NCBI GenBank assembly: GCA_036679645.1
Contig: JAZDCY010000056.1
Location: 75,911 to 139,910 of the forward strand
DNA from: Gemmatimonadota bacterium
GTDB taxonomy: Bacteria; Gemmatimonadota; Gemmatimonadetes; Gemmatimonadales; GWC2-71-9
Reading direction: 5' to 3'
Length of the DNA stretch: 64,000 nt
Shown here: in pieces, positions 6,254 to 44,262 of the stretch
Layout of the letters: each line of letters opens with the position of its first letter
Numbering within the stretch: position 1 is the first letter of the stretch
Program-made: the position numbers and the translations under genes
The notes under the pieces: generated by a model
What the model saw: only the letters and a program-made list of their open reading frames with translations
Databases searched by the model: none
What the model was told of the DNA's origin: nothing

Positions 6254-6360
6254 CCGATGAACCCTGCCAAATTCCGTCTCGCTGAAACCGGCCTTTCAGC
6301 TTTGCGTATGGTTTTGCAGGAAGCAGCAGAACCTCAACACCACGGTTTCCGGAGGCACTC

Positions 6361-27283: not shown

Positions 27284-28605
27284 CACTATGTGGCATAACA
27301 CTTTTCGTGGGTTCGTCGGCCTCGCGGCGGTTGCCGTTGTGGCTCCATCTGCGGCTGCGCAACGCGCCGAGGTCGTGGGATACTCCCTCTCGACATCGTC
27401 CCGGGAAGCGCTCCTCACCTTCCATCTGACCGATGGAGCGACGCTGCCGGTCGGCCTTGTCGGCGGTACGGTGCGGATCGGCGAGGCCGCCGTGGGCGGC
27501 TACTCCCCTGGCGGGCAGCTCGAGTCTCAGTGGCGTGCCTTCCTGAATCAGTCCGCGGTCCTGTCGACCGCCGAGCTAATCGCGGCGGTCCACGAATGGG
27601 CGCCGGATGGTCTGGGCGATGGCGACCGGGAATCTGCCGGGATGCTGCGCGAGCTGTTCGTCCAGCTCCAGGCGGCCGCGATTACCACCCGGTTTCCGGC
27701 GGTCCCGCCCGTCCCGCAGATAGCCGGTGTTGGCAAAGTCAACCCGGCGATGGCGGGGGAAATCGCTGACGATGTGGTTGTCGCGACCGAGCTGGCAACT
27801 CGCATTGCAGAGGCGGTCGCTGGGGCGAGCGAAGCCCGCGAGCGCGCGTCGGGGGCCAGGGCGCTGCGCGACCGGATTCGCAACACGGTGCGGACGCGCG
27901 TGCGCGGCAATACGCGGGATCGGGTTCAGCTTACATTCGGCGACCACGAGTCCCGGTCGGTCGGGGCCGTCGGACCCGTCGAAGCCGCCTGGCATGGGCT
28001 GCTTGGCGTCCTGGGAACGTTCGTGGCCCTGATGGGTGTGGGCTTTGGCGTGAGCTTCTTTGCCGACCGGCAGCTAGACGTCATGGCGGACACGGTGCAG
28101 AACTCGTTTGGCCGGTCGTTCTATGCTGGTGGGACTCACGCTCACCGTGATCGGCGTCCTGGTCATACCGATGGCGATAATAGCGTTCGTCGCCGCTCTG
28201 GCCGCTGCCGTCGCCGGCGGGTATCTGGCCGTCGCCCGGGTCGCCGGGGCCAAGTTCCTGTCCCGGAAACAACAGGACTACGGGGTCGAGGGTGCTGGCA
28301 TGTTGCGGTCCCTCGCCTACGGCGTCGGCATCCTCCTGGCCATCTGGCTCCCAGCCGTGCTCCTGGGGTCGGCACCGGTTGCCGGATCGATCCTGACATG
28401 GACTGCCGTTGCAGCCACGTGGGGACTGGCCACGACGGGCTTTGGCGCCGCCATTCTGACGCGCGGTGGTCTGCGCGGCACCTTTGGACAGCGGTTCGCG
28501 CCGCATGCAATCGCCCCCGATCACGTCTTCGCCGAACCTCTCGAAGACCCGCTGGCGACCAAGGTCGACACGGCCGAGTGGCTGGCAGAGGGAAGCCGGA
28601 AGTGA
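27276..28605 (+). pseudogene. secreted/multi-TM membrane protein with an apparent frame change near 28078..28125 (pseudogene or sequencing error)
   Basis: Frame 0 (27276 onward) reads as a signal peptide plus a sensible domain up to ...VSFFADRQLDVMADTVQNSFGRSF, then becomes Arg-rich nonsense. The next frame (ORF 28108..28605) continues with plausible TM helices MLVGLTLTVIGVLVIPMAIIAFVAALAAAV. That frame has a TAG at 28075-77. Confidence 0.5.
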
Positions 28606-29456
28606 GACGCCGCATCACGTTGCTGGCCAGCCTGGCCGTGCTTGCGACGGCTGGCTTGGCAAGCGCGCAGTCCTACCGCACGGTCGTGGAGTCACGACAG
28701 ATGAGTGGTGAGCGAGACCTGAGTGTGAGCATCGGGTTCGCGGTTGGGCACATCCTGGTCGCACCCGCGCAGGGCCGCGAGCTTTACCGGCTCTCGATGG
28801 TCTACGACGAGGATTTCTTCCGACCCGATGTCCGGTACCGTGAGTCTCGCAACCGGCTCCGGGCCGAGCTCGAGTCGCTCGGTCGGCACGGTCGCCAGGA
28901 CGCAGATCTGGACCAGCAGATCGACCTCGTCATCTCGCCATCGGTAGCGCTGGATCTGCATCTCAAGTTCGGCGCAGCGGAAGCGGATCTCGAGCTGGGC
29001 GGTCTGTCGCTCACGGAGGGACATATCGAGACCGGTGCGAGCGAAACAACCGTTCGCTTCTCCGCACCCAACCGCGCCGTCTGCGAGTCACTGCGATTTG
29101 AGGTCGGTGCCGCAGAGTTTGAAGCGCTGAATCTCGCAAACGCCCGCTGTCGCCTTATCAAGCTCTCCGCAGGCCTGGCTGAGATACTGCTCGACTTCAC
29201 CGGTGAGTGGAGTGACGCGATCGAGACCAAGGTGGACATCGAGATGGGGTTGGGTGAGGTCCGACTGCGCTTCCCCGAAGACCTCGGCGTCCGGATCCGG
29301 GTCGATCGGTTTCTCGTCAGCGTCGATCGCAACGGCTTCGACAAGCGCGGCTCGACCTACACGTCGCGCAACTGGGACGACGTGACTACACACATCGAGA
29401 TCGATATCGAGGCCGCACTCGGTAGCGTCGAAGTGGAGTGGGTGCCCAACCGGTAG
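28602..29456 (+). CDS. secreted repetitive beta-strand protein, function unknown (possible LiaF-C/toast-rack-like fold)
   Basis: GTG at 28602 (GTGA overlap) gives VRRRITLLASLAVLATAGLASAQ, a signal peptide. It is followed by repeated D/E-alternating strands (ALDLHLKFGAAEADLELG, VDIEMGLGEVRLRF, IEIDIEAALGSVEVEW). This is the last third of the 726-aa track ORF. Confidence 0.55.
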   Translation: MRRRITLLASLAVLATAGLASAQSYRTVVESRQMSGERDLSVSIGFAVGHILVAPAQGRELYRLSMVYDEDFFRPDVRYRESRNRLRAELESLGRHGRQDADLDQQIDLVISPSVALDLHLKFGAAEADLELGGLSLTEGHIETGASETTVRFSAPNRAVCESLRFEVGAAEFEALNLANARCRLIKLSAGLAEILLDFTGEWSDAIETKVDIEMGLGEVRLRFPEDLGVRIRVDRFLVSVDRNGFDKRGSTYTSRNWDDVTTHIEIDIEAALGSVEVEWVPNR

Positions 29457-29542: not shown

Positions 29543-30526
29543 ATGTCGGTCACGATTCGACGCGCGGGCCCCGCCGATGCGGCAGCCCTGACGGCGATCG
29601 CCCTTGCGGCGAAATCACACTGGGGATACCCCGACGCCTGGCTCGCAGAGTGGCGACCGCAACTCACGCTCGCTCCCGACTACGTAACCCGTAATCCGGT
29701 GTTCGTCCTCGAAGAGTCACGGGAACCGGTCGGATTCTGCGCCCTCGCGCGTGAACCGGAACATTGGCTACTCGATCACCTGTGGGTGTCTCCCGCCGCG
29801 CACGGTCGTGGGTACGGACGCGCGCTGTTTCGACATGCCGTTTCGTACGCCGCCGCTGAAGCACCTGCGCTCGCGGTCCGCATCGAGTCCGATCCAAACG
29901 CCGAAGCGTTCTACGCCCACATGGGCGCACGGCGCACTAGCACCCACCCAGGGCCAGTGTGCGGACTGCCGCGCGAACTCCCCGTCCTCATCTATGAGAC
30001 CCAAATGATCATTTCACGACCCGCTCCCGACGAGTACGCCCCCTACTACGGCGGCTACATCGACCAGGTACCGGACGGTGACGTCTTGGACCTGTTGCAA
30101 CACCAGATCGGGCAGACGACCGACCTCATCTCGGGCGTAGCACCTGAGCGCGGCACATATCGTTATGCGCCGGAGAAATGGTGCCTCAACGACGTCCTCG
30201 GGCACCTTTGCGACACCGAGCGCGTTTTCACCTATCGGGCACTCCGCTTCAGCCGCGGCGATGCACAGGCACTGCCCGGCATGGAGCAAGACGACTACGT
30301 GACCGGAGCGAACTTCGCGGACCGCTCGACGGCGGACCTGCTGGAAGAACTCCAAACGGTTCGTGCCGCGACCATCACACTTTTGCGTTCGCTGACGCCC
30401 GAGATGCTCGCGCGGCGGGGCACGGCAAGCGATTGCCAGTTCACGGCCCGCGCCATTGCCTATGTCATTGCGGGACACGAGCGACATCATGTGCAGGTGC
30501 TCCGCGAACGCTACCTCGAACGCTGA
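29543..30526 (+). CDS. GNAT acetyltransferase fused to a DinB-family (DinB_2-like) domain
   Basis: The N-terminal ~155 aa are GNAT (HLWVSPAAHGRGYGRALFRHAV). The C-terminal ~170 aa are DinB-like (WCLNDVLGHLCDTERVF...IAGHERHHVQVL). It is a single ORF with no internal stop. Confidence 0.75.
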   Translation: MSVTIRRAGPADAAALTAIALAAKSHWGYPDAWLAEWRPQLTLAPDYVTRNPVFVLEESREPVGFCALAREPEHWLLDHLWVSPAAHGRGYGRALFRHAVSYAAAEAPALAVRIESDPNAEAFYAHMGARRTSTHPGPVCGLPRELPVLIYETQMIISRPAPDEYAPYYGGYIDQVPDGDVLDLLQHQIGQTTDLISGVAPERGTYRYAPEKWCLNDVLGHLCDTERVFTYRALRFSRGDAQALPGMEQDDYVTGANFADRSTADLLEELQTVRAATITLLRSLTPEMLARRGTASDCQFTARAIAYVIAGHERHHVQVLRERYLER

Positions 30527-30551
30527 ACGCCGAACCAAGGGAAGCCAACCC

Positions 30552-31733
30552 ATGGCGCAACTCCATCCGGGATCAAAGGATCGGCGTGCTCATGTCCGGC
30601 GTTGGGGCTGGACGCTCGCTGCGGGAGCGTTCGCCTGCGGGCCTTCGCTGGTTCCGACAGTGCCGGCCCCGGTGGTTCTTGCTGGAGCAATCGAGCACTC
30701 GGTCTTCTTCATCGGCGATGCCGGCGCTCCGGCCGTGCCCACCGATCCGGTCCTGATCGCCCTCCGCGCCGCGGCATCCGAGCACCCGGAGCGGAACAGC
30801 ATCGTATTTCTCGGAGACAACGTGTACCCCATGGGGATGCCGGTGCGGGACGATCCGTCCCGGCAGGAATCGGAGCGGCGGCTCCAGGCACAGATCGATG
30901 CCGTGCCGCAGGGCGCCCGGGGCATCTTCGTCATGGGGAACCACGACTGGATTCGCGGCCGCGAGGGCGGGTTGGCAGCCGTTCGGCGCCAACTGGCCTA
31001 CATCGCCGATGCCGGCCGACCACTCGTCGTTGCGGCACCGACCGGTGGCTGCCCCGGGCCCGCGGTGATCGACGTCAGCGCGCGACTGCGCCTGGTGATG
31101 CTCGGCACCCAATGGTGGCTCCACGGGAGCGAGCGGCCCTCCGACCCGGCCTCCGCGTGCATCGCCGACTCGGAAGCGGAGGTCACCGACTCGCTCCGCA
31201 CCGTCGTGCAAGCAGGTCCCGATCGCATCGTCTTGGTCGCCGGACACCACCCTTTGCGCTCAGGCGGGGTGCACGGCGGCAAGTTCGACTGGAAGGACCA
31301 CATCTTCCCGCTGCGAGTCTGGAAGTCGTGGCTCTGGTTACCGCTTCCGATTATCGGGTCGCTGTATCCGCTGGTGCGGGGATCTGGCTTCTCGGCGCAG
31401 GACCTGGGCTCGGGACGCTACCAGACGATGCGGGACTCGATCGTCGCCGCCTTTGGCAGCCATCCGCCGCTTGCGTATGCAGCGGGGCACGAGCACAATC
31501 TGCAGGTTCTGGACGGCATGGGAGCTCGCTATCTCCTCGTATCGGGAGCCGGCATCTACGATCACCTCAGCCAGGCATTCCGACTCGAGGGTTCACTGTA
31601 CGCGCGGGCCGCGAGCGGTTTCATCCGCATCGATCTCCTCCGAGATGGACGCGTTCGCCTCGCGGTGCTCTTGGCGGATGGAGACGGCCGGTTGACCGAG
31701 GATTTCTCGATGTGGCTGGAGGAGAACCGATGA
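30552..31733 (+). CDS. secreted calcineurin-like metallophosphoesterase
   Basis: ATG at 30552 with a hydrophobic N-terminus WTLAAGAFACGPS. Motifs: FFIGDAG, VFLGDNVYPMG, VMGNHDW, VAGHHPL, AAGHEHNLQV. Confidence 0.8.
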   Translation: MAQLHPGSKDRRAHVRRWGWTLAAGAFACGPSLVPTVPAPVVLAGAIEHSVFFIGDAGAPAVPTDPVLIALRAAASEHPERNSIVFLGDNVYPMGMPVRDDPSRQESERRLQAQIDAVPQGARGIFVMGNHDWIRGREGGLAAVRRQLAYIADAGRPLVVAAPTGGCPGPAVIDVSARLRLVMLGTQWWLHGSERPSDPASACIADSEAEVTDSLRTVVQAGPDRIVLVAGHHPLRSGGVHGGKFDWKDHIFPLRVWKSWLWLPLPIIGSLYPLVRGSGFSAQDLGSGRYQTMRDSIVAAFGSHPPLAYAAGHEHNLQVLDGMGARYLLVSGAGIYDHLSQAFRLEGSLYARAASGFIRIDLLRDGRVRLAVLLADGDGRLTEDFSMWLEENR

Positions 31734-34282
31734 GACGCAAGGTACCCGGCACGGCGCTCCTGTTGGCAGCCGTCTCAGTCGCGGGTCCCTCATCGACGCA
31801 TGCACAACAGCGCGATAGCGTCCGGATCGCGGCCGGCTCCCAATACGATGCAGGTGGGTTCCACCGCCTCCTGTTCGGCGGTGATTATCGCGACCTGTGG
31901 CGTACCCCGATCTCTGTGCTCATGCTCGACCTGGATACGGCGAGCGGCGGCCTCACACCGACGACCGCAGGTGGAGGATTCCAGACGAAGTCCCTGCGCT
32001 TCCGCGACGCGAACGGGTTCCTCTATGGATTTCGGTCGGTGGACAAGGACCCCGCCGTCCTGCCGGACGAGTTGGCCGGAACCTTCGTCGAGGACCTCGT
32101 ACGGGACCAGACAAGCTCGGCCCATCCTGCCGGCTCCGGAATCGTTCCACCGTTATTGGAGGCGGTGGGCATTCTCCACACGGAGCCCCGGCTCGTCGTC
32201 CTCCCCGACGACCCCAGGCTCGGTGTGTTCCGGGAACGCTTTGCCGGGACGTTGGGCTATTTCGAGCTGCGTGGAATTGTGGAACCCGGCGCGCAACGGT
32301 TCGCCAACGCGCTAGAGATTCTCGACAGCGACGACGTATACCCAATGGTGCGGCAGAGCCCGGCACATCGTATTGACACCCGCCAGTTTCTCACAGCACG
32401 GCTCATCGATCTCTTGATCGGCGATTGGGATCGTCACCGGGGCCAGTGGGGCTGGGCGCGCTTCGATGACGCAACCGTCACCTATTGGACTCCCATACCC
32501 GAGGACCGCGATCAGGCCTTTGCGCGCTTCGACGGCCTGTTCCTGTCGCTGGGACGGGCAGCGGCCCCGCAGCTCGTGAACTTCGGCGATGACTATCCCA
32601 ACATGGTGGGCCTCACGTGGAACGGGCGGGAGAGCGACCGGTGGTTTCTCGTCCAGCTGGAAAAATCCGTGTGGGATTCGGTGGCTGCCGCGGTGCAGGC
32701 GCGAATCACGGACGCGGTCATCGACGCCGCGGTCGCGGGCATGCCCGTCGAGTATCAGGCAATCGACGGCGACCGCATGCGCCGGGCGTTGCGCGCGCGC
32801 CGCGACAAACTGCTCGAGGCAACCGACCGGTTCTACCGCGTGATCGTGGGAGAGGTTGACCTCCACGCAACGGAGGCGGCGGAGTTCGTAACGATCGACC
32901 GACATGCCGACGGCAATGTGACCGTCGAGATCACCGAGCGTCGTCCCGGCGCAACTCCCTGGCTCCGCCGCACGTTCGACGCGAGCGAGACCAGCGAAAT
33001 ACGGCTCTATCTCTATGGCGGCAACGATCGCGTCGTCGTGCGCGGGGACGGGCGAGGCATTGGCTTGCGGATCATCGGAGGTGGGAGCGACGAGGTGGTG
33101 GATTCCTCGCGTGCCGGCGGCGTCAGGTTCTATGCGACGGGGGTCGATCGCACGAGTGGGCCCACCGGGGTGCAGGTGGACCGCCGCGTGTACACGCCAC
33201 CAGCCAAACGGTTCGAGAGGGAACTGCCGCCACGCGATTGGGGCCACCGCTGGATGCCGGTGCTCTGGGCCGGTGGCGGGCCCGACATCGGTGCATTCGC
33301 GGGATTCGGCGCGTTTGTAACTCGGTGGGGATTCCGCAAGCTGCCGTACACATATCGGATTCGCGTACGCGGTGGCTACGCCACGGCAGCAAGGGCATTC
33401 CGGACCGACCTGCTCGCGACGTTCTATCGCATGAATTCCCGGATCCACGGTGACGTGTACGTCCGTGCGTCCGGAATCGAGGTGCTACGCTTCCACGGTC
33501 TAGGAAACGAGACGCAGCTCGACCGCCCGGATGATTTTTACCGTGTCACCCAGGACCAATACACTATCCAGCCGACGGTCACCGTTCCGCTGGGAACCCC
33601 CGCGACAATCACGTTCGGGCCTCTCGCGACCATCAGCGATACCGAGGCGCAACCGAACCGGATCATCGATTCACTCCAATCACTCCAACCGTTATACGGG
33701 GCCGGACACTTCAGTCAGGTCGGATGGCAGACTAGCGTGAGGTTCGATACCCGGGACGTCGCGGCCGCGGCTTCGCGGGGGGTAGCCATCGACGTTGGCG
33801 GCTCGGTCTACCCCGAGCTGCTCGACGTGGTAACGACCTTTGGTGAGGCCCACGCCACGGCATCGACATATCTCTCCGTCGGTGGCCCGGGCGCGCCCGC
33901 AGCAACGCTTGCCCTCCGCGCCGGTGGAAAGAAAGTCTGGGGAACTTTCCCCTTCCACGAGGCCGCTTTCATAGGAGATGACGCGACGGTGCGCCTGGGC
34001 CGCCAAAATCGTTTCGGCGGTGACGCCGCCGCGTGGGGCAACGCGGAACTCCGGCTGCGGGTGGCAAAGATCTCCTTTCCCTTGCCGGGCCATTTCGGCC
34101 TGCTAGGCCTCGCGGACGCCGGACGCGTGTTCCTCGAGGGCGAATCGTCGGACGACTGGCATACGGCGTTCGGAGGCGGCATCTGGTTTTCCTTCCTCCA
34201 ACCGTCGAATACCATAAGCGCGGCGGTTGCGCACAATAGTGAAGACGTGCGGTTGTATGTACGGGCCGGGTTTGCTTACTGA
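31730..34282 (+). CDS. signal peptide + kinase-like (PI3/4K-like motif) region + Omp85/surface-antigen-type C-terminal beta-barrel
   Basis: ATG at 31730 (ATGA overlap with the phosphoesterase stop). Signal peptide: MRRKVPGTALLLAAVSVAGPSSTHAQ. Kinase-like motifs: LIDLLIGDWDRHRGQW and IPEDRDQAF. The C-terminus (FGGDAAAWGNAELRLRV...LADAGRVF...GGGIWFSF...RLYVRAGFAY) resembles an Omp85 barrel. The ORF-track start at 30602 is an out-of-frame overlap with the upstream gene. Confidence 0.7.
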   Translation: MRRKVPGTALLLAAVSVAGPSSTHAQQRDSVRIAAGSQYDAGGFHRLLFGGDYRDLWRTPISVLMLDLDTASGGLTPTTAGGGFQTKSLRFRDANGFLYGFRSVDKDPAVLPDELAGTFVEDLVRDQTSSAHPAGSGIVPPLLEAVGILHTEPRLVVLPDDPRLGVFRERFAGTLGYFELRGIVEPGAQRFANALEILDSDDVYPMVRQSPAHRIDTRQFLTARLIDLLIGDWDRHRGQWGWARFDDATVTYWTPIPEDRDQAFARFDGLFLSLGRAAAPQLVNFGDDYPNMVGLTWNGRESDRWFLVQLEKSVWDSVAAAVQARITDAVIDAAVAGMPVEYQAIDGDRMRRALRARRDKLLEATDRFYRVIVGEVDLHATEAAEFVTIDRHADGNVTVEITERRPGATPWLRRTFDASETSEIRLYLYGGNDRVVVRGDGRGIGLRIIGGGSDEVVDSSRAGGVRFYATGVDRTSGPTGVQVDRRVYTPPAKRFERELPPRDWGHRWMPVLWAGGGPDIGAFAGFGAFVTRWGFRKLPYTYRIRVRGGYATAARAFRTDLLATFYRMNSRIHGDVYVRASGIEVLRFHGLGNETQLDRPDDFYRVTQDQYTIQPTVTVPLGTPATITFGPLATISDTEAQPNRIIDSLQSLQPLYGAGHFSQVGWQTSVRFDTRDVAAAASRGVAIDVGGSVYPELLDVVTTFGEAHATASTYLSVGGPGAPAATLALRAGGKKVWGTFPFHEAAFIGDDATVRLGRQNRFGGDAAAWGNAELRLRVAKISFPLPGHFGLLGLADAGRVFLEGESSDDWHTAFGGGIWFSFLQPSNTISAAVAHNSEDVRLYVRAGFAY

Positions 34283-34354: not shown

Positions 34355-35987
34355 GTGGAGGTAGTGAGCGACCGGGTCCGACCACTCACCACGACATCCA
34401 CCAGCCAGCGCAGTTCCAGCGCGTGGACGTGGAGTCTGGCGTCGCTGCCACCGGATCTTCTCGAGCAATCGTGCAAGCGGATTGCCATCGTCGCGATGGT
34501 CTTTGCGGGGCTCTGGATGCTCCCTCTGGTTCTCAACCCGGTTGCGCTCCGATTCGCACCCGATGACCCGTTCGTGGCAGGCGCCGCGTGGCCCATGCCC
34601 GGCAGGTTAATCGCGGGACTCGGGCTCCTGCTGTCGCTGGGAATGGTCTTCGTGGCGGCCAAGCTGCACCCCGCACCCTCCGTGCTGTTGAACACTGGGC
34701 TCGGATTCGAGGTCGCAACGGCCCTGCTGATCGGGATTCTCAATCAGTGGCAGCCCGTCCTCGTTCCCGGCCGTGCCTCCTGGATATGCATCATCATTCT
34801 GATCTATCCCGCGATCGTACCCAATACACCCACCAAGACGTTCATCGCCGCGTTTGCTGCCGCGTCGATGGACCCGCTCGGGTTCGGGATTGCCATGGCG
34901 CGCGGCGCCGTCCCCGCGGGTGAATTCACCGCCTTCACCGCCCTGTGGTATTTCCTCCCGGCGTACCTGTGTGCGGCCCTTGCAGTAGTTCCGGTACACA
35001 TCATCCGGAAGCTCGGGCGACAGGTCAGCAAGGCCCGGGAGCTGGGCAGCTACCGCCTCGGCGAATCGATTGGGACAGGCGGGATGGGAGACGTCTACCG
35101 GGCGGAACATCGGCTGCTGGCACGACCAGCCGCGATCAAGCTGATTCGCCCCGCGCTCCTTTCCACAAGCCGCCGGGAGGCGACGGTGATCCTCGAGCGA
35201 TTCCGCCGCGAGGCCGAGGCGGCGGCGCTGTTGCGCTCCCCGCATACCATCGAACTCTACGATTTCGGCGTGGCCGAGGAAGGGACGTTCTACCTGGTAA
35301 TGGAGCTACTCGATGGACTCAGTTTCGAGGTGCTAGTCGAGCGATTCGGCCCGGTTCCGCCAGAACGCGCGGTGTATCTCATGCTCCAGGCCTGTGCCTC
35401 CCTGGCCGAAGCACATTCCACTGGTCTGATGCATCGTGACATCAAGCCATCCAATATCTTTACCAACCGTCTCGGGCTCGAGGTCGATTTCGTCAAAGTG
35501 CTCGATTTTGGCCTGGTCAAGGCAGACCCCGGAAACGGGGTCGAGCAATCGGACCGGCACGCCGGCGTTCATGGCGCCGGAGGTCGCGCTCGGCGAGGAG
35601 ACCGCCGACCACCGCCTCGACGTATACTCGCTTGGGGCGGTACTCTATTGGATGCTCACCGGTCAGCTTATCTTCGAGGCATCCAATCCGATCAAGATGA
35701 TGCACCGACACATTAGAGACCAGCCGACGCCACCGTCGCAACGTACGGAACTCGACATACCACCCGAGCTCGACGACCTCGTCATGGCGTGTCTCGCGAA
35801 AGACCCTGAAGCGCGACCCGCGAACGCCGCGGCACTCGCCCATGCACTCGCCGAGATCGAGTTCCAAGAGCCGTGGACCACTGAGCGGGCGGAGCGTTGG
35901 TGGGATATGCACGTTCCAGACTGCATGACCGCCGGCGGCCCGTGCGACCAGGGAACGCTGGTACCTGCGTTGTCAGTCGCCGGGTAG
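34355..35987 (+). pseudogene. membrane-anchored Ser/Thr protein kinase, frameshifted inside the activation segment (pseudogene or homopolymer error)
   Basis: ORF 34355..35716 carries about 6 TM helices, GTGGMGDVYRAEH, AAIKLI, HRDIKPSNIF and DFGLVKADP. ORF 35436..35987 continues ...TGTPAFMAPE...DVYSLGAVLYWMLTG...ACLAKDPEARP. The frames meet at a C4 run (35527-30) and a G4 run (35537-40). Confidence 0.75.
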
Positions 35988-35998
35988 TCTCCACGCAC

Positions 35999-37423
35999 AT
36001 GCGCCGCGCCCTCCGAACCACCGTCGGCCTTACGGCGCTCCTTCTCGCGGGTCGTATTCCGATCATCGCGGCACAAGAGGCCGACACGGCCCGGCTTCGG
36101 AACATTCTCGATCTCAGTACGTCCCTGGAGACGCTCTCCACTCGGATAGCCCCGGCCGTCGTGCAGATCTTCACGACCGCCCTGGGACCCGTCGCGCCGG
36201 GATCCGGCGCCCAGCGAGTGGGTCTCCAACGGCGAGGTGGTTCCGGTTTCGTCCTGACATCGGACGGGTATATCCTGACGAACGCCCATGTGGTAGCGGG
36301 AGCACGCTCAGTACAGGTCCTGCTCGCACAGGCTGCCGCGCCCGATGCGCCCGGTCGGTCCGTCATACGGCCGGGGGGAAAGCGAGTGACCGGTACGGTT
36401 GTGGGGGCCGATTCAGAAACGGACTTGGCGCTCATCAAGATAGATGAGACCAATCTGCCGTTTCTCCAGTTTGGCGATTCGGACGAACTGGGCCCCGGGA
36501 ACCTCGTACTCGCCTTCGGAAGCCCCCTTGGTTTGGAGACCTCGATCAGTCTAGGCATCGTGAGCGCCGTGGGGCGGCAGCTGCGGCCGGAAAGCCCTAT
36601 GGTCTATATCCAGACAGATGCACCAATCAATCCTGGAAACAGCGGCGGTCCCCTCGTGGACACACGGGGACGTGTCATTGGCATCAACACGCTGATCCTC
36701 TCGCAGTCGGGCGGCAGCGAAGGCGTGGGCTTCGCGGTACCAAGCAACATCGCACGGAGCGTCTACGGGCAGCTCCGCAGTGCCGGGCATGTACGCCGCG
36801 GTATCGTCGGAGCCAACGTGCAGACGATCGACGTGGTCATGGCGGACGCACTTCGCCTTACGCAGGATTGGGGCGCGATCGTGACCGATGTGTTTCCGCG
36901 TTCCCCCGCCCAACAGGCGGGGCTGCAGGTGGGTGACATCATCGTCTCCCTCGATGGAAAGCCCATGGAGAACGGGCGCCAGTTCGACGTCAACGTCTAT
37001 CAACGCGCCGCGGGCGACATCATCCGTCTCGACGTGCGGCGCAACCTCCAGCGGCTCTCCCTGCAGGTGCGCGTGGTTGAGCGCGACCGCGACCCGAATC
37101 GCTTCGCGGATATGGCTCGCTCCGAAGAAAATCTGGTGCGTCGGCTCGGCATACTGGCCCTCGACGTGACGCCGGCCATTGCACGGCAGATGCCCTGGCT
37201 GCGCATGCAGACCGGCGTCGTCGTGGCCGCGCTTGCCGCCGACGTTCCGCGCATCGAGACCGGTCTCCGGGCAGGTGATGTGATTCATGCCGCGAACGGC
37301 GCCGCGGTCACGTCGCTCGCGATGCTGGCGGCGTTCCTCAACCAGTTGGACGTGGGCGATGCGGTGGTGCTGCACGTCGGCCGGTTCGGACGTCTTCGGT
37401 TCGTTGCATTCCGCATCGAGTAG
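35999..37423 (+). CDS. DegP/HtrA-family periplasmic serine protease with two PDZ domains
   Basis: ATG at 35999 gives the signal peptide MRRALRTTVGLTALLLAG. Catalytic triad context: TNAHVV, DLALIK, GNSGGPLVD. Two PDZ-like regions follow. Confidence 0.9.
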   Translation: MRRALRTTVGLTALLLAGRIPIIAAQEADTARLRNILDLSTSLETLSTRIAPAVVQIFTTALGPVAPGSGAQRVGLQRRGGSGFVLTSDGYILTNAHVVAGARSVQVLLAQAAAPDAPGRSVIRPGGKRVTGTVVGADSETDLALIKIDETNLPFLQFGDSDELGPGNLVLAFGSPLGLETSISLGIVSAVGRQLRPESPMVYIQTDAPINPGNSGGPLVDTRGRVIGINTLILSQSGGSEGVGFAVPSNIARSVYGQLRSAGHVRRGIVGANVQTIDVVMADALRLTQDWGAIVTDVFPRSPAQQAGLQVGDIIVSLDGKPMENGRQFDVNVYQRAAGDIIRLDVRRNLQRLSLQVRVVERDRDPNRFADMARSEENLVRRLGILALDVTPAIARQMPWLRMQTGVVVAALAADVPRIETGLRAGDVIHAANGAAVTSLAMLAAFLNQLDVGDAVVLHVGRFGRLRFVAFRIE

Positions 37424-38819
37424 ACGCGCCCTGCGGTGCGCGTTCTCGACACTCCTGCTGTGTACGACATCAGGCGCGGCAACAGCCCAAACTCACGACG
37501 GTTCCGGCAACAGCTATTGGGGAACCATACCACCACCGCACGATTCGGTAAGCGCGGTATTCGCCAGCGGGCCACGCCCCGTCTGGGAAACCGTCTTGCT
37601 CGTCCCATACTGGATCATGGGACTCCCGCTACGACTCCTCGCGGTCGGCGTCGGGGAAGGTGTCGAGTCCCTCGACGAGTCGGGCATTGCCAGTACGGTG
37701 GGTGGCTGGCTGGGTCCACGCACCGGACCGTTCGGGGTCGTCGTCAGCGCGCGGGCCGGCGGATTGAGTGGCGTCGGAGGCGGAGTGGCCGTTGAGCACA
37801 CGGAGCTGTTCAATCGACCGGGTACCGCATTTCGCGGGCGGGTAGCCGGTACGTTCATCGGTGACTTTCGCGCGAGCGGCGCGGTGCGAGTCCCCTTCTC
37901 GGAACGCAGCCTGCTCGACGTGGGCACTGGGTATCGATTTCGCAACAGGGTTCGCTACTTCGGTATCGGGCCCGAGCGCGGCGCTGAGGACGAATCGATA
38001 TTCCGCCAACGTACATGGTGGCTGGGAGGCGAGGTCACCGGCGGCTGGGGAGATCAGATCACCGCGACCGCCAGCCTCGTGTTTACGAGTGTCAAGCCAC
38101 TCGACGCGCGTGAACAGGACCAGAACAGCGACGACCCGCCTATCACCGTACGCTACGCAGACTCCCTGCCACCTGGCTTTGGCGAGACCTCTAACGGCAT
38201 GGCTCTGGGGGCGGAGATCATGCACCAGGACGCGACGGATACTGGTAGGCCGATGAGTGGCGGTATCCGTCGTGCCATAGTCGGCTACTTTCGTGGGACC
38301 GGCGGCGAGACGACCGAGTTCTGGAACGTACGGGGAGAGCTGCAGCAGTTCGTGCCGCTGTGGTATCGACATCACGTACTCGCCCTTCGGCTGGCGACCT
38401 CGTGGATGCAGCAGATTGGCGACGCGCCCATTCCGTTCACTCGCCTCATCTCGAACGACGATCCGGACCTCCTGCGCGGCTTCGACGACTTTCGCTGGCG
38501 CGACCGTGGGCTCGCGGTGCTGTCAGCGGAGTACCGCTGGCCGTTGTGGGCGTATGAGCGTGCGCAAGGTGCGGGCCTCGACTTCTACCTGCTCACAGAT
38601 GTGGGACAGGTCTTCAGCGACTTCGACGACATCCGCGGAGAGAACCTGACATTCTCGTATGGCGCCGGCCTGCGACTCGTCACTGCAGCGGGCTTCGCGC
38701 TGCGCATCGAGTATGCGCTCAGCAACGAGGACGTGGCGTTCCGCCTGCGTGGCGATCAGATCTTCCAGACCTTCCGAGGGGCGCTCTACCATGGACGCGA
38801 ACCGAACCCCGCGCGCTAG
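37404..38819 (+). CDS. Omp85/surface-antigen-like outer-membrane beta-barrel protein
   Basis: Proposed TTG start at 37404 gives (M)HSASSRRALRCAFSTLLLCTTSGAATAQ, a signal peptide. The C-terminus LRGFDDFRWRDRGLAVLSAEYRWPL...LLTDVGQVF...FSYGAGLRLV...ALRIEYA is typical of Omp85-type barrels. The start codon is uncertain. Confidence 0.6.
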   Translation: MHSASSRRALRCAFSTLLLCTTSGAATAQTHDGSGNSYWGTIPPPHDSVSAVFASGPRPVWETVLLVPYWIMGLPLRLLAVGVGEGVESLDESGIASTVGGWLGPRTGPFGVVVSARAGGLSGVGGGVAVEHTELFNRPGTAFRGRVAGTFIGDFRASGAVRVPFSERSLLDVGTGYRFRNRVRYFGIGPERGAEDESIFRQRTWWLGGEVTGGWGDQITATASLVFTSVKPLDAREQDQNSDDPPITVRYADSLPPGFGETSNGMALGAEIMHQDATDTGRPMSGGIRRAIVGYFRGTGGETTEFWNVRGELQQFVPLWYRHHVLALRLATSWMQQIGDAPIPFTRLISNDDPDLLRGFDDFRWRDRGLAVLSAEYRWPLWAYERAQGAGLDFYLLTDVGQVFSDFDDIRGENLTFSYGAGLRLVTAAGFALRIEYALSNEDVAFRLRGDQIFQTFRGALYHGREPNPAR

Positions 38820-40473
38820 GCTCGTCTCGCTGGCTGCGGGCGCGCTCCTGGTTTCCGCTTCGGGAGCGCTGCTCACGCCGTTGCGCGACGCTCCCGTCGC
38901 GTGGTACGCGGATGATATGCGCAACATAGCGGAACCCGCGGAACGCGAGCCGCACATCGTCCGCGCGGCGATCGACGCCACGCTATTCAGGCCGTTCGGT
39001 CGCTTCTTCCATCCCGGGCGGCTTGTCCGTCGGGTCGGTACTGCATTTGGAGGAGATCATGTTCCGGCCGCGGCGAACCTCAATGCGCTGGACGAGGTCC
39101 CGAATTCGAGTTGGTTCACGAATCGCCTCGGGCTCTTCCCGAGCGCTCCCGCCGTCGCCGCGCGGGGCCCAGCGGTGGGTGAAGGTCCATCAGCCCCGTG
39201 GACGGTGATTCGCCCGAAGACGCAAGGTGTGACACCAGGGTTCGATATTCGGGACGCCAACGGACAGGTCTGGGTCATCAAGTTCGACGTTGCAGGATTC
39301 CCCTCGATGTCCACAGCCGCAGGGGTCATCGCGGGGCGGATCTTCCATGCGGCGGGGTACAACGTGCCTGACGATCGGGTCGTAACGTTCACGCGCGACC
39401 AGCTCCAGGTCTCGCCCGATGCCGAGATGCGCGAGGGTGACGACCGCCGTCAAATGACCCATGCCGATCTGGACGAGCTACTGGCGCGCGTGGAGCGCAA
39501 TCCGGACGGGAGCTGGCGCGCTCTCGCGAGCAGGTTCCTTTCCGGTACGCCGGTTGGGCGCTTCGACTGGCGAGGACGGAGGCGAGACGATCCCAACGAT
39601 CGGGTCAACCATGAGAACCGACGTGAGATTCGCGGTCTAGCGGTCTTCGCCGCGTGGCTCTGCCACTACGACACCAAGCAGGGGAACACGCTCGACATGT
39701 ACGTCGAGGAAGATGGGCGTCGCTTCGTCCGTCACTACCTCATCGACTTTGCCTCCACCCTTGGGGCGGGCGGGACCGGTCCCTTCCCCGCCGCCTGCTA
39801 CGAGTACTCATTCGATTTCGGTGCTTCGTTCCTCCGTGTCCTGTCACTGGGCGTCTACCAGGACCCCTGGCGGCGGCTCGAGCGTCCCGAGGGGCTCGAT
39901 GAGATTGGATACTACGAGAGCGAGGTCTTCTCCCCTCGCGGGTTCAAGCCACTCGAGCCGAACGCCGCCTTCGCCAATCTGACGGATCGGGATGGCTATT
40001 GGGCAGCGAAAATCATATCAGCGTTCACGGACGCGCACCTGGAAGCGATGGTTGCGGGGGGACGCTACCGCACGCCGGAGGCGGCGCGTTGGATGCGGCG
40101 CGTGCTGGCAGAGCGGCGCGACGAGATCGTGCGGTACTGGTTCAGCCGGGTACCACCGCTGGATTTCTTCACGTACCATGACGGGACAGTGCGATTTCAC
40201 GATCTCGGGACGAGAAGCGGGATCTTTTCGGGGTCCGAGACGCGTTACCGTCTGAGGGTGGCCTACGCGACGCCGACGCGCGACCTTGGTCCCACGACCG
40301 ACTGGCTCGAACTCGAGCGGACGGAGACGGCGCTCTCGCAGATCGCAATCCCGGGCACCCCGGAGCCGTTCATAGCGATCGAGACCCAGCTCACACGGGG
40401 GGCGCGCTGGAGCCATTCGGTGACCGTGTTCATCGCGGCCGCGAGCGGGCGCGTTGTTGCGCTCGAACGATAG
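38791..40473 (+). CDS. signal/anchor-bearing protein with protein-kinase-like motif set, function unknown
   Basis: ATG at 38791 gives MDANRTPRARLVSLAAGALLVSASGALL. It carries RDANGQVWVIKF (beta3-Lys-like), CHYDTKQGNTL (DxKxxN-like) and HYLIDFASTLG (DFG-like) in canonical order. It overlaps the barrel gene end by 29 nt. Confidence 0.55.
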   Translation: MDANRTPRARLVSLAAGALLVSASGALLTPLRDAPVAWYADDMRNIAEPAEREPHIVRAAIDATLFRPFGRFFHPGRLVRRVGTAFGGDHVPAAANLNALDEVPNSSWFTNRLGLFPSAPAVAARGPAVGEGPSAPWTVIRPKTQGVTPGFDIRDANGQVWVIKFDVAGFPSMSTAAGVIAGRIFHAAGYNVPDDRVVTFTRDQLQVSPDAEMREGDDRRQMTHADLDELLARVERNPDGSWRALASRFLSGTPVGRFDWRGRRRDDPNDRVNHENRREIRGLAVFAAWLCHYDTKQGNTLDMYVEEDGRRFVRHYLIDFASTLGAGGTGPFPAACYEYSFDFGASFLRVLSLGVYQDPWRRLERPEGLDEIGYYESEVFSPRGFKPLEPNAAFANLTDRDGYWAAKIISAFTDAHLEAMVAGGRYRTPEAARWMRRVLAERRDEIVRYWFSRVPPLDFFTYHDGTVRFHDLGTRSGIFSGSETRYRLRVAYATPTRDLGPTTDWLELERTETALSQIAIPGTPEPFIAIETQLTRGARWSHSVTVFIAAASGRVVALER

Positions 40474-40483
40474 GGAGAATCAG

Positions 40484-41980
40484 ATGGCTACGAACGCTTC
40501 GCGGGATGGCCAAGCAAGCGCCGTAGATCGTTTTCTGCGCCTGTTCACAGAGGTGCGGGGCGGCGAGAGCACGACGGCGCTGCTGCTCGCGCTCAATGTT
40601 TTCTTGTTCCTGATGGCCTACTCTGTCATAAAAGTGCTCCGAGAACCCCTCATCCTGGCCGGTGGGGGAGACACGCTGAGCGGCGCCCAGCTCAAGGCGT
40701 ACACGGCCGCCGGCTCGGTGTTGCTGTTGGCGGTCATCGTCCCCCTGTACGGGGAACTCGCCGGCCGCGTTCCCCGGCGCCGTTTGATCAATATCGTAAG
40801 TGCGATATTCGTGCTGGCGCTCGGCGGATTCTTCCTGCTGGCCCAAACCGGTCTTAGCGTCGGGATTCCCTTCTTCATCTTCGTCGCGATCTTCAGCGTG
40901 ATGATCATCGCCCAGTTCTGGGCGTTCGCGAACGACGTCTATACGGAAGAGGAAGGAAAACGCCTCTTCCCCATCGTGGGCTTTGGTATGTCGGCTGGAG
41001 CGATCGCCGGGGTGTCGGTTACAATAGCGCTCGAACCGCTGGGGCTCAACGTGCTCTTTCTCCTCTCGGCCGGGGTGCTCGTCCTGGCTACCGCGATGAC
41101 CAACCTGATCGACCACCGCGAGCGACGCCGCACCGAAGCAACCGTACCGGATGCCATGACGAGTGGATTCCTGCCGGCGGCGACGGGGCAGTTCCGTGCG
41201 GCGACGGGAGAACTCAAGGCCACCGCCGAGAGTGAGGAGTACCAACGTGAGACCGGCACCTTCCGGACGGTCAAGCCCGGACAATCCATCGAGGAGACCG
41301 AGAAGGAACAGATCGAAAGCACCGCGGGCGCCTTCGCCCTGGTCTTCCGCAACCGGTACCTGCTCCTCATAGCACTCCTGGTCATGCTACTGAACTGGGT
41401 CAACACGAACGGGGGGTTCTTCCTGGATGACTTCATCACGCGGAGCGCGGAAGCGACCGTGGCCGACAATCCCCAAAGCGACCTCAGCACGGGTGAAATC
41501 ATAGGTTCGTTCTACGCACGATTCTATTTGGTCGTGAACATCGCCACGCTCTTGATCCAGGGCTTTGCGGTATCGCGCATCATCAAGTACTTCGGTGCAC
41601 GAGGAGCGATCCTCTTTCTGCCGATCATCGCGCTTGGCGCGTACACGCTCGTGGCCTTCATCCCAGTGCTGGCCGTCGCACGGTGGGCCAAGACCGCGGA
41701 GAACAGTATCGATTACTCACTCAACAACACGGTGCGCAACGTGCTGTTCCTGCCGACGACGCGGGAGGAGAAGTACAAGGGCAAGCAGGTCACGGACGCC
41801 TTCTCCCAGCGCGCCGGCGATGTCCTGAGCTCCGCGACGGTGTTCGTGCTGACGGGCCTGCTGGGCTTTGGAGGAATCGCCCTCGTGTACCTCAACATCC
41901 CGCTGGTGATCATCTGGCTGATCATCGCGGTGGCACTCGGGCGCCGGTACGGACGCCTCGCGGCCGCAACGGGGACCTAG
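40484..41980 (+). CDS. TLC-family (ATP/ADP-translocase-like, Npt-type) transporter
   Basis: ATG at 40484 follows AGGGAGA. About 12 TM. The motif QFWAFANDVYTEEEGKRLFPIVGFGMSAG is typical of TLC/NTT proteins. Confidence 0.8.
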   Translation: MATNASRDGQASAVDRFLRLFTEVRGGESTTALLLALNVFLFLMAYSVIKVLREPLILAGGGDTLSGAQLKAYTAAGSVLLLAVIVPLYGELAGRVPRRRLINIVSAIFVLALGGFFLLAQTGLSVGIPFFIFVAIFSVMIIAQFWAFANDVYTEEEGKRLFPIVGFGMSAGAIAGVSVTIALEPLGLNVLFLLSAGVLVLATAMTNLIDHRERRRTEATVPDAMTSGFLPAATGQFRAATGELKATAESEEYQRETGTFRTVKPGQSIEETEKEQIESTAGAFALVFRNRYLLLIALLVMLLNWVNTNGGFFLDDFITRSAEATVADNPQSDLSTGEIIGSFYARFYLVVNIATLLIQGFAVSRIIKYFGARGAILFLPIIALGAYTLVAFIPVLAVARWAKTAENSIDYSLNNTVRNVLFLPTTREEKYKGKQVTDAFSQRAGDVLSSATVFVLTGLLGFGGIALVYLNIPLVIIWLIIAVALGRRYGRLAAATGT

Positions 41981-44262
41981 TCGGCCTCGGACCGCCGTTT
42001 CTTGCGGAGTGCCTCGAGGTCTATCACGATCGAGGCGTTCGACTGCAGCAGGTCATTCAACACCGTATCGGCCGAACGGCGTTCGGTGGTCTGCTTCCGC
42101 GTATCCTCGAGAAACGGCCACAGGGCCTTGCGAATTTCATCCGGCAGCGCACTCTCCAGGTATTCGAGCGCGGTGCCGCGGAGGTGCGCGTCTTCCGTAT
42201 GCAGGCCCCGGAACGCGATCTTGAGCGGCTGACGGGGCAAGACGAGCGCAAGCATCGTAAACACGTGCTCGAGGCTGCGATTCGCTCGCTGTCGCAGCAT
42301 CTCATCCATGACCGGAGACCAGGACTCGTCTTCCATCTGATCCAGGATGCGATGGCTCTTCCACACCCCCTGATCGACGGCAACCTCACTGAGCACCGCC
42401 TCCTCCACCCGTTGCCGGCTGATGACCAGCTTGGGATTCCGATCCAGGAGGCGTGACAGAGCGCGGCCACAGCGGTACCTCACCTCGAAGCGCGAGTCGC
42501 GCAGCGCGCTCAGAAGCCCATCCACGGCGCGCCGATTGGGGCATGACGCGAGGACGAGCGGAAGCCGCCGCCGCACGGCGAAGTCCTCATCGGGATCGAG
42601 CAGCCGATCGCACAATTGCCCGGTCGCGCGTGGTGCGACGTCGCGCAGGGTCGCAATAACGTCCTGAGCCACAGCGTCCCACGCGAGTAGCGGCACCGCA
42701 TATGCGACGAGTGAGAGCGGGAACGGGCGGGTCGCGAGCACTCTGCGAACCGCGGTCGCGTCGCGAGACCGCAACTCGCCGATCTGCGCGAATTCCGGCG
42801 TGAGGGTGACCGCCGACGGCGAGGACCGCGCCGGCACCGCCGGCCGCTGCGCAGATGCGCGGACCTCTTTCAATGCCGGTCCGCTCGTATCGAATAGCGT
42901 CATACCCAACGCCCCGGCCGTCTGCAGCAATGCCGTGCGGGTAGCCGCCTCGCGCGCCTCAGCGAGATCCAACTGCCCTGCGCGCGATAGAAGACTCCGT
43001 TCCAGGGCCTTCACGTAACCGCGCTGCAGACGAATGGCGAGCATGGCACCAACGAGTGACACGGCGATCGTGAGTCCCAACAGGACTCCGGTCACCGCGC
43101 CGACCGCGACCGCGACGATGGTAACCTGAACGATCGCGCCCCCGATCACATCTCCGAGCCGAACCGCGCCGACGTCTACCAATACCTTGGTCGCGCGTTT
43201 CTGGCGCGGGGCGAGCGGAGCGAACAGCATCTCGTAGCCGGCTCGGTATAGCCCGTTCCGCATCACAGACTCGGCGCCCCGGACACCGATGATCATGCCG
43301 AGCCGGGGCGCGACGAGCGCAGCCGCTCCACCGAGCGCTATGGTTGAGGGAAGGAGAGCAACCGTACGCCCGAGTCCCAACCGCTCCAGCGACAGGCGAC
43401 TTCCGACCGCCTGCACGATCACCGTGAGAAGGGCGACGCCGGTATAGAACACCGCAAAGAAACGCAGCAGGGATTCCCCACTGCCGAACGACGCGGTCGC
43501 GCGCGCCTTGAACACGTAGTCGATGAGTCCTTCGCCAATCGTCGTGACGAGTACGAGTGCGACCAGACCACGCAGGTATCCTGTTCGAGCCAGGAGCTTG
43601 ACGCCGGCGAACGTGCTCTTCTCGGTGCGGGCTCCTGCGCGTACCGCGACACCGCCGCCGCGACGCACTCCTAGGACCGTTACCGCACACAGGACGTGCA
43701 GTGCGGCGAGGATTGGAAGCATGGCGGTTATCGAAAGGAGCGCAGCGGATCGTTCGGCGAGAATTCCCCCAAGCAGCCCACCAACGGTACCACCCGCCGC
43801 TATCCGTCCGATCTGACGTTTCGCCGTACGCGGGTCGAAGCGCTCGCTCACGATCGACCAGAAACCGGAGATCAGGACCGCACCGAGACCGGAGAAGTGG
43901 AAGTACACGGCAACCGCGACCGGCCGGCGGAAGGTATCCACGAACATCCACTCCGTGAGGAGCAGCGCACCGCTCACCAGGAACGCCAGCGGGACCACCC
44001 GTGCCGGGCCGAGCGTCATCAGGACGCGCGTCGTGCCAAACGCGAGCAACACCGACACCACCGCCGCGGCCATGACCATCGCCGGCAACGCCGAGATATC
44101 GAAGCTCGACAGGAACAGCGCGTCACGAGTCGCCTTGGCTGCCATCTGGAAGGCGATCATGACGGTGGCCGTCAGCGTCGCAGCAAAAACCGCGGAACGG
44201 AGATCCCGATCAGCGGTGATGGTCAGGCTCCGATGGGGCAGGTGTGAGGGTGACAGGCACAC
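41977..44262 (-). CDS. TLC-like transporter fused to a C-terminal HEAT-repeat domain
   Basis: 761 aa. The N-terminal multi-TM half has GFWSIVSERFDPRTAKRQIGRIAAGGTVGG, paralogous to the neighbouring transporter. The C-terminal ~300 aa have HEAT-like repeats (RRLPLVLASCPNRRAVDGLLSALRDSRFEVRYRCGRALSRL). The exact start is uncertain, because the first 53 nt overlap the upstream remnant ORF. Confidence 0.75.
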   Translation of the reverse strand: MCLSPSHLPHRSLTITADRDLRSAVFAATLTATVMIAFQMAAKATRDALFLSSFDISALPAMVMAAAVVSVLLAFGTTRVLMTLGPARVVPLAFLVSGALLLTEWMFVDTFRRPVAVAVYFHFSGLGAVLISGFWSIVSERFDPRTAKRQIGRIAAGGTVGGLLGGILAERSAALLSITAMLPILAALHVLCAVTVLGVRRGGGVAVRAGARTEKSTFAGVKLLARTGYLRGLVALVLVTTIGEGLIDYVFKARATASFGSGESLLRFFAVFYTGVALLTVIVQAVGSRLSLERLGLGRTVALLPSTIALGGAAALVAPRLGMIIGVRGAESVMRNGLYRAGYEMLFAPLAPRQKRATKVLVDVGAVRLGDVIGGAIVQVTIVAVAVGAVTGVLLGLTIAVSLVGAMLAIRLQRGYVKALERSLLSRAGQLDLAEAREAATRTALLQTAGALGMTLFDTSGPALKEVRASAQRPAVPARSSPSAVTLTPEFAQIGELRSRDATAVRRVLATRPFPLSLVAYAVPLLAWDAVAQDVIATLRDVAPRATGQLCDRLLDPDEDFAVRRRLPLVLASCPNRRAVDGLLSALRDSRFEVRYRCGRALSRLLDRNPKLVISRQRVEEAVLSEVAVDQGVWKSHRILDQMEDESWSPVMDEMLRQRANRSLEHVFTMLALVLPRQPLKIAFRGLHTEDAHLRGTALEYLESALPDEIRKALWPFLEDTRKQTTERRSADTVLNDLLQSNASIVIDLEALRKKRRSEAD

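Follow-up and report, generated by a model that had tools for sequence, protein, structure and literature searches.

A ten-subfamily classification of the Omp85 superfamily lists barrels with POTRA, patatin, peptidase/WD40 or metalloprotease partners, or with none (PMC4104836). Proteins with a 16-strand-type barrel, an L6 RGF motif and no detectable POTRA have been described as the 'noNterm' class (Heinz and Lithgow 2014, PMC4104836) and among Leptospira paralogs (PMC11358297), and neither paper mentions a kinase partner or kinase domain. In the type Vb systems (FhaC/FHA, ShlB/ShlA) and in the type Vd protein PlpD an Omp85 barrel stands beside, or is fused to, an enzymatic partner, and split and fused forms coexist. 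On the kinase side, the Fam20 kinases have been described as distant relatives of HipA (PMC6829671). Here we analyzed a 64,000-nucleotide (nt) stretch of a Gemmatimonadota genome assembly, referred to as the window, and in it the two genes at positions 37404-40473, an Omp85 barrel gene followed by a gene that we call kinL. On balance we read the pair as a conserved two-gene envelope phosphotransferase module, made up of a POTRA-less Omp85 barrel and an exported KinL protein with an atypical kinase-like fold of the HipA/CtkA/Fam20 type. Both kinds of fold are known, and what is new is a kinase-like partner for a POTRA-less Omp85 barrel. A search of the literature on Omp85-kinase pairing, periplasmic ATP supply and new protein kinase-like (PKL) families found no description of the kinL family or of the pairing, and the family is also absent from a 2026 survey of new kinase-like families. 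The window has a GC content of about 65% and its nearest relatives are Gemmatimonadota metagenome-assembled genomes (MAGs).

The barrel gene opens on a TTG codon and its product was found to have a signal-peptide-like N-terminus (SRRALRCAFSTLLLCTTSGAATAQ), a periplasmic N-terminal stretch of about 95 residues, the barrel itself at about residues 125-451 and a conserved C-terminal tail of 20 residues. Membership in the Omp85 superfamily was evident from Pfam PF01103 (E 8.9e-13, 48.9 bits against a cut-off of 24) and from NCBIfam Omp85_fam (3.3e-16), and the barrel family profile matched BamA in the PDB (4k3c, E 9.9e-5). The L6-type motif LLRGF is conserved: all 30 sequences compared have R358 and G359. 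No POTRA family of the kind that marks BamA, TamA and TpsB was detected with Pfam at E <= 0.1. From its sequence the protein fits the 'noNterm' class, with which it shares the barrel type, the L6 motif and the lack of a detectable POTRA, and it differs from that class in the conserved N-terminal stretch, the conserved tail and the kinase-like gene next to it. The tail (residues 452-471, window 38760-38819) has the consensus GGLFHGRDPVPAR and lies past the last beta-strand motif, DQIFQF. Part of it shares its DNA with the kinL N-terminus in another frame, which puts this segment under dual-coding constraint. At its start the barrel gene overlaps the degP stop (37423) by 20 nt, or by more if an in-frame ATG at 37356 is used, and at its end it overlaps kinL by 29 nt, which suggests translational coupling. 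An earlier note on this DNA had reported both overlaps and a separate Omp85-like barrel, and all three were confirmed.

kinL starts with ATG and encodes a signal peptide (residues 1 to about 26), an N-terminal extension (about 30-135), a kinase-like core (about 136-370), a helical region (about 390-455) and a C-terminal beta-sandwich (459-560). A signal peptide was present at the start of every family member examined, with lipoboxes in two divergent ones. Searches of Pfam, NCBIfam and PADLOC matched no family, and a defense-system reading of kinL was rejected on that basis. PDB sequence searches with KinL alone and with profiles A1 and A3 returned no kinase and only an Ig-like match at the C-terminal domain. 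Two of 36 members gave a weak match over the N-lobe to the Pfam family HipA_2 (E 0.13, 12 bits where the cut-off is 27), so neither HipA_C nor HipA_2 was reached at its threshold. The family is nonetheless very large and lacks a Pfam, NCBIfam or literature description. HMMER searches of 1.84 billion representatives gave 3684 clusters at 50% identity with E <= 1e-3, including 2564 at <= 1e-10 and 1194 at <= 1e-30, nearly all of them 540-610 aa in length; more than 3200 clusters at 90% identity were counted among the scored candidates.

The fold of KinL was assessed with an AlphaFold2 (AF2) model made from 36 sequences (pLDDT 75, pTM 0.79, with core blocks at 70-92). When this model was compared with the PDB using Foldseek, kinase-fold proteins made up nearly all of the top 50 matches. 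The best E-values came from Fam20C (1.2e-4, probability 0.99-1.0, TM 0.25-0.32, about 10% identity), followed by CtkA of H. pylori (5.7e-4), which gave the best target-normalized match (TM 0.53), and PI4KII-alpha (1.3e-3), all three at probabilities of 0.99-1.0, with Hydra and zebrafish Fam20, Rio2 and HipT among the further matches. The predicted structure is therefore recognizable by structure comparison as the bilobal fold of the PKL superfamily.

Three motifs that the earlier note had listed for this protein are present and in order, the catalytic-loop-like CHYDTKQGNTL starting at 39661, 3 nt from the figure given there. Conservation was scored on 81 sequences, the window copy plus 80 genomic loci, with identity down to 37%. 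K164, D294, N299, H315, D319 and G325 are invariant in 81/81, H292 is found in 80, and 75 sequences have Lys at position 296 where the other 6 have Arg. At position 321 Ala predominates (67 sequences, against 12 with Gly). The wider family has the consensus HYLxDFGxTLGS, with a literal DFG, and an HxD consensus as well. In the model these residues fall on the expected elements of a kinase-like active site: K164 ends a predicted strand (160-164), the catalytic loop follows directly on an alpha-E-like helix (278-290) and precedes a hairpin (300-317), and D319 comes after the strand 310-317, which is the place of the DFG Asp. The Lys, the D-x-K-x-x-N and the DFG-like Asp thus occur in order and on the right structural elements, as the earlier note had supposed when it called the protein kinase-like. 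The loop HYDTKQGN resembles that of the eukaryotic protein kinases rather than that of HipA. As judged by sequence and model, KinL is exported, has a kinase-like fold and retains its full catalytic set. Its activation-segment region was modeled poorly, and K296 varies in P0330, a distant member that reads DCSARN. Residues 38-112 (window 38905-39126) have pLDDT below 50, yet W38, D42, P49, R52 and the motif NxLDEVPNSSWFTNRxG are invariant there; high conservation with low pLDDT would fit a stretch that becomes ordered only when bound to a partner, perhaps the barrel.

KinL shares a kinase-like fold with the CtkA/HipA-like kinases and is, like CtkA, exported. It differs from them in sequence similarity, which stays below family thresholds, in its loop (HxDxKxxN versus DRHxxN), in its conserved N-terminal extension of 100 residues, its C-terminal beta-sandwich and its obligatory Omp85 partner, and in not being a component of a toxin-antitoxin pair. 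With Fam20C the likeness is at the level of the fold only. Fam20C acts in a compartment topologically outside the cytosol, as we propose for KinL, but the hosts here are bacteria, the kinL family has no conserved cysteines or disulfides, and Fam20 has nothing that corresponds to the Omp85 barrel partner.

To determine how often the two genes occur together, 185,579 species-representative genomes were scanned for kinL. This gave 307 loci, 80 of which were kept, from Gemmatimonadota, Eisenbacteria, Krumholzibacteriota, Latescibacterota, Zixibacteria, Calditrichia and unclassified MAGs. By tblastn, 73 loci had a barrel gene as the nearest upstream neighbor of kinL; a barrel HMM added L071 and L079 and removed a spurious 37-aa match in L039, bringing the count to 74. 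Leaving aside five loci that have no upstream sequence, adjacency was therefore observed in 74 of 75 evaluable loci, the sole exception being L076. A start codon permitting the same 29-nt overlap was seen in 35 of 73 loci, and most of the remainder have an overlap of 1-23 nt or a gap of less than 30 nt. More distant kinL representatives, at about 32-36% identity, also lie behind an Omp85-type gene (L084, L085/L086, L087 and L088). The earlier note had proposed that the barrel and the kinase-like domain act together, and adjacency at this level over several phyla, usually with overlapping genes, supports joint action. In L041 a second, divergent barrel-kinL pair is encoded on the other strand, some 4 kb away from the main one (3-2707 on the minus strand, 6320-9626 on the plus strand), with 41% identity to the window protein for KinL and 25% for the barrel, which indicates that the two genes can duplicate as a unit.

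Directly downstream in the window is a TLC/NTT-like transporter gene, which overlaps the kinL stop if a TTG start is used. It scored 45.6 bits against a Pfam TLC cut-off of 21, and its only PDB matches were to the plastid ADP/ATP carrier NTT1 (9j3j, E 8.6e-5). It resembles the characterized TLC/NTT proteins (Rickettsia Tlc1, Chlamydia Npt1, plastid NTT1) and differs from them in that the window copies are very distant, their hosts are free-living and the second copy carries HEAT repeats. A TLC-like homolog was found within 3.5 kb downstream of kinL in 44 of the 68 loci with enough flank, and was adjacent in 27. The two TLC-like genes of the window are convergent with a 4-nt overlap at their 3' ends, and both are linked to barrel-kinL in many genomes, the HEAT-bearing one in 27/80 loci. 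Hanks-type kinases were seen in 32/80 loci and degP, upstream of the barrel, in 18/80. Where no TLC-like gene was present the downstream genes were mixed (TPR, metallophosphoesterase, SelO, Hanks kinase or no Pfam match), and no second universal partner emerged. A metallophosphoesterase follows kinL in L044. P0330 (L084, 3628-5976) joins a kinL-type domain to a C-terminal PAP2 acid-phosphatase-type domain that has PSGH and His/Asp motifs and no strong transmembrane segment; it is known from a single contig, where a barrel gene precedes it with a 4-nt overlap. We take this fusion as a lead to lipid or phosphate chemistry and to a periplasmic location.

Two observations concern these neighbors in their own right. 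In L063 (Krumholzibacteriia) a gene for SelO, a protein adenylyltransferase with a kinase fold, lies directly downstream of kinL (10274-11797). The Hanks-type kinase of the window is split, with Pkinase positions 1-147 in the ORF 34355-35716 and 152-261 in the ORF 35436-35987 and the shift near 35500-35555; this is either a one-base indel from assembly error or a pseudogene, and intact homologs flank the module in many related loci.

The window also encodes a fused protein, read as a signal peptide, a kinase-like N-domain (about 30-373), a beta-solenoid (375-484) and an Omp85 barrel (506-846). Its AF2 model (pLDDT 84.7, pTM 0.80) gave an alpha/beta N-domain, and a Foldseek search with the full model had BamA and TamA as top matches. 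Support for a kinase-like N-domain came from an alignment to CtkA, from the order of secondary structure and from hhalign, while Pfam matched no kinase family in the fused family. The family profile met CtkA at E 0.058 over the catalytic loop, where LIDLLIGDWDRHRGQWGWAR aligns residue by residue with VADTLLGNFDRHNGNWGFLR over CtkA 146-176. GDWDRHRGQW corresponds to GNFDRHNGNW of CtkA, a loop of the G-x-x-D-R-H-x-x-N type, with Gln replacing Asn. In 119 fused-family sequences R102, K106, D232, D234, R235, H236, D259, R260 and D261 are invariant and Q239 is present in 114, the other five having Asn. PEDRDQAF follows the second strand of a hairpin (240-257), the position of the DFG Asp in the model. 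The earlier note had contrasted the intact motifs of KinL with their loss in the fusion, and this did not stand, the fused family having its own invariant set, DRHxGQ...DRD, that aligns with CtkA. The metallophosphoesterase gene before the fused gene encodes an exported-looking N-terminus and overlaps the fused gene start by 4 nt; L004 and L083 share this arrangement, and L082 has a copy in the vicinity. The fused gene shares the kinL neighborhood in L003, L004, L005 and L081, in the last beside a kinase-TLC-kinase run, and the two genes are within 10 kb of each other in L003-L005 and the window. Both families also occur in one genome, CP070716 (JSW43_13220 and JSW43_03565).

The relation between the fused protein and the pair was examined by pairwise, profile and structural comparison. 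The barrels are homologous (hhalign probability 97.3%, E 2e-11, 37404 barrel 125-451 with fused 525-847). BLASTP found nothing significant between KinL and the fused protein or between the 37404 barrel protein and the fused protein, and an hmmsearch of the kinL HMM against the 119 fused proteins gave a best E of 0.053 in that small set, which is not significant. The hhalign result for KinL and the fused protein improved with a more diverse kinL profile, from 48 columns at probability 6% (0.0059) with shallow alignments to 12.6% (0.0023) with the window and 80 loci, and to 33% (P 4.5e-4, score 37.4) when about 130 representatives were added. This deepest alignment spans 210 columns (KinL 176-448 with fused 134-363) and pairs YDTKQGN with WDRHRGQ (D294-D234, K296-H236, N299-Q239). 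Sixty column-shuffled controls scored 16.1 +/- 2.3 with a maximum of 25.3, and a reversed profile 22.5. Motif spacing is collinear: the catalytic Asp lies 136 residues beyond the turn Gly in KinL and 138 beyond it in the fused protein, and the metal Asp follows the catalytic Asp at 25 residues in both. The paralogy proposed in the earlier note therefore fails as a close relationship detectable by BLASTP or HMMER and is retained as a remote, collinear similarity.

The pentapeptide RDANG, on which that proposal had been based, begins at KinL residue 154 and fused residue 92 and carries no such weight. It is one of three exact 5-mers common to the two proteins (with TAFGG and RLRVA); when KinL was shuffled, a mean of 0.81 5-mers still matched the fused protein, and 54% of shuffles gave one or more. 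Of the 119 fused-family sequences 111 have Gly at position 93, which makes the consensus RGADG, and RDANG is peculiar to the copy in this genome. The turn itself is structurally equivalent in the two models, between strands 150-154 and 160-164 of KinL and between 86-92 and 98-106 of the fused protein. That the genes are chance neighbors and the fused resemblance a chance pentapeptide is scarcely credible: the chance-level pentapeptide and the blank BLASTP and HMMER searches would suit it, but it is refuted for the gene pairing by adjacency in all but one evaluable locus and is opposed by the profile score and the barrel homology. The domains come in opposite order, the kinase before the barrel in the fusion and the barrel gene before the kinase gene in the pair, and each architecture is fixed, with kinL-type proteins essentially always standalone and fused-type proteins almost always about 790-875 aa. 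A simple fission/fusion relation was rejected on these grounds, and with it the description of the pair as a split version of the same architecture; these are two old, separate and stable families. From sequence profiles and models, the fused N-domain and KinL both appear kinase-like, remotely related and catalytically equipped.

In the module that we propose, KinL would cross the inner membrane by way of its Sec signal peptide, as a lipoprotein in some lineages, and would stay in the periplasm, working at or on its partner barrel. Docking there is suggested by the periplasmic position of the N-terminal side of Omp85 proteins and by the fused form, which would hold its kinase domain on that side, and the lipoprotein and PAP2-fusion variants fit a periplasmic location. 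Because its Lys, Asp-x-Lys-x-x-Asn and Asp-Phe-Ala/Gly motifs are invariant, KinL is most likely an active phosphotransferase. Its target would be an envelope substrate, either an outer membrane protein or a lipid or glycan phosphate. The TLC/NTT-like transporter or transporters may exchange nucleotide over the inner membrane, supplying ATP and retrieving ADP, and the linked exported phosphoesterases could reverse the modification. A compartment outside the cytosol needs imported ATP, and the supply of Fam20C by an ATP/ADP exchanger offers an analogy for the linked TLC-like gene.

Several points weigh against this proposal. No counterpart of the alpha-C Glu of kinases was recognized in KinL, and Foldseek gave TM-scores that are modest (0.25-0.30 for the query, 0.53 for CtkA). 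For the fused N-domain the structure search with the full model did not confirm a kinase fold, as only barrel matches were among the 50 matches listed, which is explained by the dominance of the barrel. On the supply side, ATP in the periplasm would leak through porins. The TLC-like gene reached 38 bits against a cut-off of 387 for the NCBIfam NTP/NDP exchange transporter (7.8e-10), and as these proteins are very distant from the characterized nucleotide transporters their substrate is uncertain. In 24 of 68 loci, among them that of the closest relative (L001), the flank also had no such gene.

The alternative that survives best, though we regard it as unlikely, is that the barrel is a translocator in the manner of two-partner secretion, with KinL as a surface or effector kinase like CtkA and the fused protein as a type Vd-like autotransporter counterpart. 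The order of barrel then cargo resembles that of the shlB-shlA operons of established type Vb systems (PMC5422565, PMC11358297), and the closest structural matches of KinL, Fam20C and CtkA, are secreted kinases. A ShlB/FhaC match in Pfam (1.4e-4) was found in 2 of 37 fused-family members and is weak; the conserved but poorly modeled KinL N-terminus could serve as a recognition signal. With Pfam, however, neither the barrel nor the fused protein gave a POTRA domain, KinL gave no TPS (haemagglutination-activity) domain and no patatin domain was seen, and KinL has a kinase-like core in place of the TPS domain that type Vb cargo carries at its N-terminus. The fused form is not built as passenger, POTRA and barrel as in type Vd, its domains being joined by a beta-solenoid. 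Lipoproteins and a protein with a PAP2 domain of periplasmic type occur among the KinL members, the family comes from free-living soil and sediment phyla, and it is difficult to see why the gene of an extracellular enzyme should be linked to a nucleotide-transporter homolog of the inner membrane.

We consider it less likely still that KinL is a pseudokinase scaffold that regulates or caps the Omp85 barrel, for example in outer membrane protein assembly or lipid handling, and transfers no phosphate. Partnering with periplasmic domains or lipoproteins is usual for Omp85 proteins (PMC4104836, PMC11358297). The lack of an identified alpha-C Glu, the poorly modeled activation segment and the variable K296 of P0330 would also be in keeping with such a role. 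Pseudokinases, though, usually lose the catalytic Lys, Asp and Asn residues. In KinL, by contrast, Lys164, Asp294, Asn299 and Asp319 are invariant over several phyla, the wider family keeps the literal DFG and HxD, and the gene is linked to phosphatases and to a nucleotide-transporter homolog.

Nucleotide scavenging, in which the barrel would let in nucleotides from outside, KinL and the phosphoesterases would bind or interconvert them in the periplasm and the TLC-like protein would import them, appears very improbable. Characterized TLC/NTT transporters do import nucleotides and NTT1 is the PDB match here, metallophosphoesterases include periplasmic nucleotidases, and the TLC linkage itself would be accounted for. 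Omp85 barrels, on the other hand, are not known as small-molecule channels, a protein- or lipid-kinase-like fold with an HxDxKxxN loop differs from the nucleotide-kinase fold, and the module is linked to Hanks-type kinases and DegP rather than to nucleotide metabolism.

To our knowledge nucleotide-dependent phosphorylation in the bacterial envelope is generally held not to occur, and the periplasm is assumed to be without ATP-driven enzymes. A barrel-kinL pair conserved across several phyla and lacking annotation hints at ATP-dependent phosphorylation outside the cytoplasm. If KinL is active and the TLC-like protein supplies nucleotide, phosphorylation would take place in the bacterial envelope, and this would bear on exported bacterial counterparts of the eukaryotic secretory kinases (Fam20, HipA-related). 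A wider proposal, that Gemmatimonadota and neighboring phyla carry out periplasmic ATP-dependent phosphorylation by Fam20/HipA-like kinases that Omp85 barrels keep at the outer membrane, as separate or as fused partners, with TLC-type ATP export and opposing exported phosphatases (metallophosphoesterase, PAP2), is put forward tentatively and is doubtful at present; such a system would be a prokaryotic equivalent of the secretory-pathway kinases of eukaryotes and would run counter to the assumption of a periplasm free of ATP-driven enzymes. Apart from this, KinL extends the known range of periplasmic Omp85 partners to a kinase-like domain and gives the poorly understood 'noNterm' proteins a concrete candidate partner.

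Table 1. Positions in the window of the genes and motifs discussed, with the basis of each assignment.
Feature	Positions	Strand	Basis
Metallophosphoesterase (calcineurin-like)	30456-31733	+	Pfam Metallophos 2.1e-5
Fused protein, 850 aa	31730-34282	+	AF2 model and family profile
LRFRDANGFLYGFRS, fused protein residues 89-103	in 31730-34282	+	Read from sequence
GDWDRHRGQW, catalytic-loop motif of fused protein	32420-32449	+	Conservation, CtkA alignment
PEDRDQAF, candidate metal-binding Asp of fused protein	32498-32521	+	Conservation, AF2
Membrane Hanks-type Ser/Thr kinase, split in two frames	34355-35987	+	Pkinase profile
degP/htrA periplasmic protease	35897-37423	+	Trypsin_2 and two PDZ; TIGR02037 1.1e-105
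Omp85 barrel, 471 aa, POTRA-less	37404-38819	+	Pfam PF01103
Barrel stop/kinL start overlap, 29 nt	38791-38819	+	Read from sequence
kinL, 560 aa	38791-40473	+	ATG start; AF2 and Foldseek
FDIRDANGQVWVIKF, KinL residues 151-165	39241-39285	+	Read from sequence
K164, candidate beta3 ATP-binding Lys (VIKF)	39280-39282	+	Conservation, AF2
CHYDTKQGNTL, catalytic-loop-like, residues 291-301	39661-39693	+	Conservation, AF2
HYLIDFASTLG, DFG-like, residues 315-325	39733-39765	+	Conservation, AF2
TLC/NTT-like transporter	40454-41980	+	Pfam TLC 5.7e-12
Second TLC-like transporter with C-terminal HEAT repeats	41977-44262	-	Pfam TLC 1.5e-6, HEAT_2 1.2e-5

Two further reading frames of the window were noted upstream of these genes. 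The 726-aa ORF at 27276-29456 has an Arg-rich, nonsense-looking middle and a family match (LiaF-like_C) at its C-terminus only, and probably represents either two genes or a frame error that yields a single ORF. The ORF at 29543-30526 combines an N-terminal GNAT acetyltransferase and a C-terminal DinB_2 domain in one frame.

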